Below, one piece after another: positions 11,424 through 11,975 of a stretch of DNA of 64,000 bases. This stretch comes from Escherichia phage Eryne. The notes beneath the pieces were generated by a model. It ran no database searches, had not been told where the DNA came from, and saw only the letters and a program-made list of their open reading frames with translations. The stretch is from the sequence record PQ529420, one strand, 5' to 3'. The first letter of the stretch is position 1. The number at the start of each line of letters is the position of its first letter. Both the position numbers and the translations under genes were made by a program.

Positions 11424-11975
11424 ATGCGGATTACTGATAAGTATGTGTTCTTCTTCTCGGCAAAAGATGAATTTAGCAACTGGTATCTATCATCTTTTAT
11501 TGAACCTTTAGCTCCCAAGTATAATAATTCTATTACAAGTTCTGTTGAATTTACTTGTGTGGAACAATATATGATGTGGAGAAAAGCATGTTTGTTTTAT
11601 GATTACAACATTGCATCTTCTATTTTAACCGGAGATCTAAGATATACAGGAGAAAAAGAACAGGCATATTATAAGCGACTAGGTAGATTAGTTAAAGATT
11701 ACGATGAAGCTACTTGGACTTCTTTACGGGAGAAGATTGTCAAGCGTGGTTTGTATCTTAAATACACACAAAATGAAGATCTCAAAAATAAACTTATAAC
11801 CTACGCAGATAAGGAGTTCGTAGAGGCAAGCCCTTATGATTCTATTTATGGTATCAAAATGGGGATGTGGGATCGTGATGTGGAAAATAAGGACTGTTGG
11901 AAAGGACAAAATCTTTTAGGAAAATGGCATACAGACCTTGCTGTTTATCTAAAAACACAATCTGATATTTCCTGA
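11424..11975 (+). CDS. NADAR-family (YbiA/DUF1768-like) protein
   Basis: VFFFS...FSNWY...EQYMMWRKA...NLLGK pattern typical of the NADAR domain; start overlaps upstream stop. Confidence 0.55.
   Translation: MRITDKYVFFFSAKDEFSNWYLSSFIEPLAPKYNNSITSSVEFTCVEQYMMWRKACLFYDYNIASSILTGDLRYTGEKEQAYYKRLGRLVKDYDEATWTSLREKIVKRGLYLKYTQNEDLKNKLITYADKEFVEASPYDSIYGIKMGMWDRDVENKDCWKGQNLLGKWHTDLAVYLKTQSDIS

Follow-up and report, generated by a model that had tools for sequence, protein, structure and literature searches.

A NADAR protein of a Justusliebigvirus coliphage, an ortholog of the anti-DarT factor AdfN^Bas60

NADAR enzymes and the anti-DarT factors of phages

The class-defining residue on the last strand of the NADAR domain sorts the described members of this superfamily into a glutamate class, with YbiA and the stand-alone NADARs, an aspartate class, with the DarT1-linked DarG1/BC4488 proteins, and a histidine class, with the NADARs of T4-like phages (PMC11543638, PMC11125620). 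DarG1 (e.g., of E. coli C7, or of G. lovleyi, PDB 8BAT) is the NADAR antitoxin of DarTG1, and the Phytophthora nicotianae enzyme (PnNADAR; PDB 8BAU) is a stand-alone guanine-ADPr hydrolase (Schuller et al., Mol Cell 2023, PMC11543638). In vitro, T4 AdfN, DarG1, PnNADAR and YbiA have each been shown to strip ADP-ribose off guanine in DNA (PMC11257639, PMC11543638, PMC11125620).

On the phage side, Johannesman, Carlson and LeRoux (Nat Commun 2025, PMC11825919; preprint PMC11257639) named T4 gp30.3 the anti-DarT factor NADAR, AdfN, and described a distinct NADAR in the BASEL phages Bas60, Bas61 and Bas62, which they call AdfN^Bas60. When supplied from a plasmid, this protein is reported there to neutralize DarT1 toxicity in uninfected E. 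coli and to let RB69, T5 and Bas25 form plaques at full titer again on cells with DarTG1, while the experiments described show no rescue of T5 on DarTG2, the thymidine-modifying system (PMC11825919). According to the same text, AdfN^Bas60 does not require other phage factors, unlike AdfN^T4, which depends on the T-even infection context and is unable to neutralize DarT1 in uninfected cells; the published tree groups AdfN^Bas60 with bacterial NADARs that are neither DarT-associated nor YbiA (PMC11825919). The catalytic mutants and purified-enzyme assays in the consulted sections of that work are those of AdfN^T4 (PMC11257639), an enzyme that does not remove cytidine-linked ADPr (C-ADPr; PMC12945103).

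The stretch of DNA analyzed here (the window, 64,000 nucleotides) belongs to an E. coli myovirus of the genus Justusliebigvirus (Stephanstirmvirinae), the genus of AdfN^Bas60, and its NADAR protein was compared with the tested protein, which we identified through the bas60_ locus tags of GenBank (Bas60, PaulScherrer, bas60_0111, QXV83846.1; Bas61, EmilieFrey, bas61_0107; Bas62, JohannJBalmer, bas62_0106). The window protein and bas60_0111 are of equal length (183 aa) and identical at 180 of the 183 positions (98.4%), a count that holds also for bas61_0107 and for bas62_0106. All catalytic residues are identical, and none of the three substitutions relative to Bas60 (N62S, A96D and T126A) lies in an invariant or nearly invariant column of the family; positions 62 and 96 vary also among the three BASEL proteins, which their authors treated as one protein. 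As in Bas60, the NADAR comes after an AAA ATPase gene and a CapR/T5orf172 gene, and the order of genes around it is the same as in Bas62. As judged by this near-identity and by synteny within the genus, the window gene is an ortholog of AdfN^Bas60; further orthologs are PAULA_0095, with a 100% identical protein, and a gene at 135999-136550 of phi92.

The anti-DarTG1 role is already published for this ortholog, which is 98.4% identical and belongs to the same phage genus; no more recent study of the Bas60-type protein turned up in a literature search under the name 'AdfN'. A sequence-only reading of the window had described the use of phage NADARs against DarTG as proposed, which for AdfN^Bas60 is by now an experimental result (PMC11825919). 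The same reading took the gene product for a candidate factor against DarTG defense; this stands for DarTG1, which acts on guanine, by virtue of the AdfN^Bas60 rescue, and does not extend to DarTG in general, given the reported lack of T5 rescue on DarTG2.

The 4 kb around the NADAR gene share 98.5% DNA identity with Escherichia phage vB_vPM_PD06 and are 94-98% identical to dozens of other Stephanstirmvirinae/Justusliebigvirus phages of ~146 kb. At the DNA level, the gene itself and that of phage Paula are 100% identical, and 55 phage records have it at a nucleotide identity of at least 96%. By tblastn, 716 phage records match, including those of Phapecoctavirus and of Staphylococcus, Listeria, Enterococcus and Bacillus phages (large myoviruses), in agreement with Iyer et al., whose survey put the share of myoviruses with a NADAR at 27% (PMC9503650). 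The labels given to the orthologs are inconsistent and range over hypothetical protein, GTP cyclohydrolase II, N-glycosidase, YbiA-like and NADAR. Four 'Campylobacter phage' records of ~146.4 kb (A150, MG065639; A145, MG065645; C3, MG065656; A110a, MG065689) and one 'Serratia phage' record also have the gene, with a nucleotide identity of 97-98%; Campylobacter as host is probably an error, due to a contaminant or a mislabeled E. coli phage.

The NADAR gene, its family and its active site

The coordinates of the gene, its start signals, its key codons and its upstream neighbors are collected in Table 1. All four motifs by which the sequence-only reading had picked out the open reading frame are present in the encoded protein (VFFFS at residues 8-12, FSNWY at 17-21, EQYMMWRKA at 47-55 and NLLGK at 163-167), and the resemblance to the NADAR family is much too strong to be fortuitous, with hits to Pfam NADAR PF08719 (DUF1768; E = 3.8e-36, 125.3 bits versus a gathering cutoff of 35.1, residues 13-168), NCBIfam TIGR02464 (110 bits, cutoff 73.7) and PHROG phrog_1017 (E = 1.4e-49). 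TIGR02464, which bears a YbiA-type N-glycosidase label, is a domain-level model that captures ADPr-hydrolyzing NADARs too. The protein displays the YbiA-like alpha+beta fold, with a helical core and two small sheets on the flanks, and its NADAR core starts at about residue 6-8. There is also a weak match to the NCBIfam model 'DS32_2 NADAR family anti-phage protein' (E = 4.6e-6), which, with the PADLOC match considered below, places the NADAR domain on both the defense and the counter-defense sides.

Table 1. Features of the NADAR locus and its upstream region (positions in the window).
Feature	Position	Strand	Remarks
Consensus -35 TTGACA	7508-7513		Divergent region near 7500
AAA ATPase gene	9028..10155	+	Pfam AAA/P-loop module, residues about 60-170
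Intrinsic-terminator-like hairpin, ACCCGC-TTCG-GCGGGT then TTTCTT	10174..10195	+	Separates the AAA ATPase gene from the CapR/T5orf172-NADAR pair
Gene for 397-aa protein with four CapR stretches and C-terminal T5orf172	10230..11423	+	Pfam CapR E = 1.1e-38 (4 stretches), T5orf172 E = 2.2e-4
Shine-Dalgarno AAGGAG	11412-11417	+	6 nt 5' of the NADAR ATG, read from the sequence
Stop codon TAA of the upstream gene	11421-11423	+	Directly adjoins the NADAR ATG
CDS of the 183-aa single-domain NADAR protein	11424..11975	+	ORF listing, ATG start
Glu47 codon GAA	11562..11564	+	Aligns with PnNADAR E43, E. coli C7 DarG1 E88, T4 AdfN E36
Lys54 codon AAA	11583..11585	+	Aligns with PnNADAR K50, C7 DarG1 K95, T4 AdfN K43
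Glu134 codon GAG	11823..11825	+	Acidic residue that defines the class, on the last strand; aligns with PnNADAR E125, T4 gp30.3 H123

Schuller et al. give E43, K50, R79, W89, R93, E125, D130 and W133 as the ADP-ribose-contacting or catalytic residues of 8BAU (PMC11543638). HMMER alignments map these to E47, K54, R88, W98, R102, E134, D139 and Y142 of the window protein, all of them conserved apart from the exchange of one aromatic residue for another (Trp to Tyr) at Y142. The glutamate at the PnNADAR E43/C7 DarG1 E88/T4 AdfN E36 position coordinates the distal ribose, and the lysine at the K50/K95/K43 position contacts the pyrophosphate and functions in catalysis (PMC11543638, PMC11257639). Across 56 homologues, E47, K54, W98, E134 and D139 are invariant and R88 is nearly so. 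In a marginal hhalign alignment with T4 gp30.3 (probability 23%), E47 and K54 pair with E36 and K43, and E134 with H123. The sequence-only reading would have given way had catalytic residues been missing; none is lost in the alignments with 8BAU and T4 gp30.3 or among the 56 homologues, and the window protein is a NADAR in which the residues for catalysis and for binding of ADP-ribose are all preserved.

With glutamate at position 134, no DarG1-type N-terminal extension and no ADP-ribosyltransferase gene nearby, the protein is best classed, by its sequence features, as a Glu-type stand-alone NADAR that is neither of the DarG1 nor of the T4 gp30.3 type. Searches of PDB sequences, and Foldseek searches of structures, place it nearest to a stand-alone NADAR and not to YbiA or DarG1: 8BAU is found at E = 8.2e-12 with the single sequence and 4.9e-36 with a profile, YbiA at 0.11 and 6.2e-18, respectively, and the sequence and profile searches return no DarG1 match at E <= 0.01. 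This outcome agrees with the position of AdfN^Bas60 in the published tree. E. coli YbiA (PDB 2B3W), a riboflavin-intermediate N-glycosidase encoded by a housekeeping gene in a LexA-controlled operon, is accordingly weaker in sequence similarity to the window protein than is 8BAU. The latter differs from the phage protein in being eukaryotic and without link to phage defense, in having W133 in place of Y142, and in the loops that correspond to phage residues 28-40 and 144-162.

The two other classes were considered and set aside. Membership in the DarG1 type (BC4488 family) was rejected, as the N-terminal beta1-beta2-alpha1 extension and the catalytic aspartate of that family are not present in the window protein; no DarT1 ART lies next to the NADAR gene, which has the AAA ATPase and CapR/T5orf172 genes upstream, no ORF in the 760 nt downstream and no ART domain. 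What it would have in common with DarG1 is the chemistry (guanine-N2-ADP-ribose hydrolysis) and the toxin that is neutralized. The T4 type (gp30.3 family) was likewise rejected, with a glutamate instead of a histidine at the class position and a BLASTP E of 1.6; the superfamily, the Glu/Lys pair and, by prediction, the anti-DarTG1 role are shared with AdfN^T4, the founding member of these factors.

Pairwise comparisons of the window and five close relatives give a dN/dS of 0.03-0.10 for the NADAR gene, a sign of purifying selection that maintains it. Its GC content (34%) differs too little from that of the window (37%) to argue for recent horizontal acquisition by composition, and this candidate explanation was dropped. 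Rfam at gathering thresholds found no RNA family and ARAGORN no tRNA over the whole window, leaving the NADAR gene without an accompanying RNA element.

Genomic setting of the NADAR gene

The NADAR is the last gene of a rightward run that starts at the divergent region near 7500. The stop codon of the CapR/T5orf172 gene abuts the NADAR ATG, so both genes are probably on one transcript. No sigma-70-like promoter came up in a consensus scan of the stretch from the terminator-like hairpin to 10230, and no terminator directly 3' of the NADAR gene; in phage Paula, terminators are annotated on both strands at the place equivalent to the hairpin. The CapR/T5orf172 protein, with zinc-ribbon-like CapR repeats, matches phrog_681 ('endonuclease'; E = 3.4e-84), and its annotated length varies from 467 aa in Bas60 to 325 aa in Bas61 and 390 aa in Bas62, against 397 aa in the window, which suggests gain or loss of repeats or a mobile homing-type gene. 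A functional link between it and the NADAR was considered and dropped, two small extra ORFs being annotated between them in ESCO13 and different genes being annotated upstream of the NADAR in Klebsiella phage 05F01. The AAA ATPase is labeled 'FtsH-like protease' or 'ATPase or Zn metalloprotease' in related records; Pfam detects no peptidase domain next to its AAA/P-loop module, and the protease label looks unsupported.

Downstream of the NADAR, no ORF is present in ~760 nt (11976-12736). Within it, a locally very AT-rich sequence (GC 23-28%) holds three tandem degenerate repeats of ~70 nt (12174-12394) with the common cores ATTTAAAGTTTTT and AAAATGAAAAGTTCAA, followed by an imperfect 27-nt palindrome at 12416-12472. 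A 16-mer of the repeats has three matches with at most two mismatches versus 0.26 expected, and none elsewhere in the 64-kb window. This 16-mer is conserved at the equivalent location in Bas62, Paula and muut, with a repeat_region annotated there in the muut record, and the segment 12174-12472 is a possible regulatory array or iteron/origin-like element. Beyond it, a lone 88-aa ORF (12737-13003, reverse strand), convergent with the NADAR, lies in a GC-rich island (50% GC, against 37% for the window); it matches phrog_19316 (function unknown), has no Pfam domain, and has same-size reverse-strand equivalents in Paula (PAULA_0094), ESCO13 (ESCO13_00265) and Klebsiella phage 05F01 (gene_47).

Elsewhere in the window, a SIR2-family protein (38114-38926, reverse strand; Pfam SIR2 E = 1.3e-22, phrog_2162 E = 2.2e-105) constitutes a second NAD+-linked enzyme ~26 kb from the NADAR and is a candidate deacylase, ADP-ribosyltransferase or NADase. 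A C-5 cytosine DNA methyltransferase (40258-41247; Pfam E = 2.1e-43), flanked by proteins of phrog_8514 and phrog_16551 (functions unknown), lies in a reverse-strand region (39523-41660) that looks like a variable island, possibly for anti-restriction; the annotation of Bas62 has no ORF of comparable size at the position equivalent to the methyltransferase.

Predicted action on DarT1 marks, alternatives and significance

We posit, with considerable though not complete confidence, that the window protein is an AdfN-type, orphan antitoxin-like guanine-ADP-ribose DNA glycohydrolase that would erase DarT1 marks from replicating phage DNA. Upon infection of a DarTG1 host, DarT1 would place ADP-ribose on the N2 amino group of guanine in the phage DNA and thereby block its replication; the phage NADAR would bind the ADP-ribose moiety by means of K54, R88, W98, R102, D139 and Y142, and E47 and E134 would hydrolyze the guanine-ribose N-glycosidic bond, restoring unmodified DNA and allowing replication to continue. 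The analysis shows directly the intact gene, its family, fold and active-site residues, the purifying selection on it and its 98.4% identity and synteny with AdfN^Bas60. The window allele is likely to act like AdfN^Bas60 and to be expressed early enough in the native phage, and for the Bas60 clade we infer a mechanism of hydrolysis and not of toxin binding; that members of this clade de-ADP-ribosylate guanine is suggested by the in vivo rescue together with the conserved residues. Some observations count against the explanation. E. coli YbiA and T4 gp30.3 do not rescue DarT1 toxicity in uninfected cells (PMC11125620), which means that guanine de-ADP-ribosylation in vitro does not always amount to protection in vivo, and the two-gene unit has a terminator-like hairpin before it and no sigma-70 promoter directly upstream.

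A wider reading, compatible with the anti-DarTG1 explanation and to our mind possible, if somewhat doubtful, would make the protein a broad-spectrum nucleic-acid de-ADP-ribosylase that acts also on cytidine-ADPr and on guanosine- and cytidine-ADPr in RNA, and shields the phage against other, undiscovered ADP-ribosyltransferase defenses or toxins, with DarTG1 as one target. Cytidine-ADPr in DNA and RNA is likewise a substrate of Glu-type NADARs (SCO5665, PnNADAR and YbiA), but not of the DarG1 NADARs or the T4 NADAR (PMC12945103), and since enzymes of this class act on other substrates, DarTG1 may not be the only, or even the main, natural target. The window protein also strongly matches the NADAR component of PDC-M42C, a candidate defense system in PADLOC (E = 1.8e-34). 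Weighing on the other side, glutamate versus aspartate or histidine as a predictor of substrate is a correlation across few enzymes, and we know of no anti-phage system that ADP-ribosylates cytidine.

Contextual analysis led Iyer et al. to propose for most phage Macro, NADAR, SLOG and Nudix proteins a role (PMC9503650) that would here amount to scavenging small ADP-ribose derivatives, i.e., to cleaving diffusible NAD+-derived signals or toxins of the cADPR type and not DNA adducts. The location of the NADAR gene in a probable early or host-manipulation block fits such a role, which we nevertheless hold to be very improbable for this protein: in uninfected E. coli, AdfN^Bas60 on its own neutralizes a toxin that modifies DNA, DarT1, making a macromolecular adduct a demonstrated substrate (PMC11825919). 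The window NADAR has no SLOG, Macro or Nudix partner, either fused or adjacent. Nor, to our knowledge, has any NADAR been shown to degrade a signaling nucleotide. We give the least credence to a YbiA-like housekeeping N-glycosidase, i.e., an auxiliary metabolic gene whose product destroys reactive intermediates of the riboflavin pathway, as implied by the GenBank labels 'putative YbiA-like N-glycosidase', 'N-glycosidase' and 'GTP cyclohydrolase II'. Both the single-sequence and the profile searches above put the window protein nearer 8BAU than YbiA, the published tree has AdfN^Bas60 among non-YbiA bacterial NADARs, and no riboflavin genes (RibA/RibD) are annotated in the 50 kb of Bas62 that are syntenic with the window. 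Moreover, DarT1 toxicity is rescued by AdfN^Bas60 (PMC11825919) and not by E. coli YbiA (PMC11125620).

A counter to DarT1 by removal of ADP-ribose from guanine is hence the reading that we retain. It adds no new biology to that of Johannesman et al. 2025, and it helps to correct the database annotations of NADAR orthologs. The phage is predicted to carry a working copy of a known counter-defense gene, which helps to predict host range on DarTG1-positive E. coli and matters when therapeutic phages are chosen from the phi92/Justusliebigvirus group.
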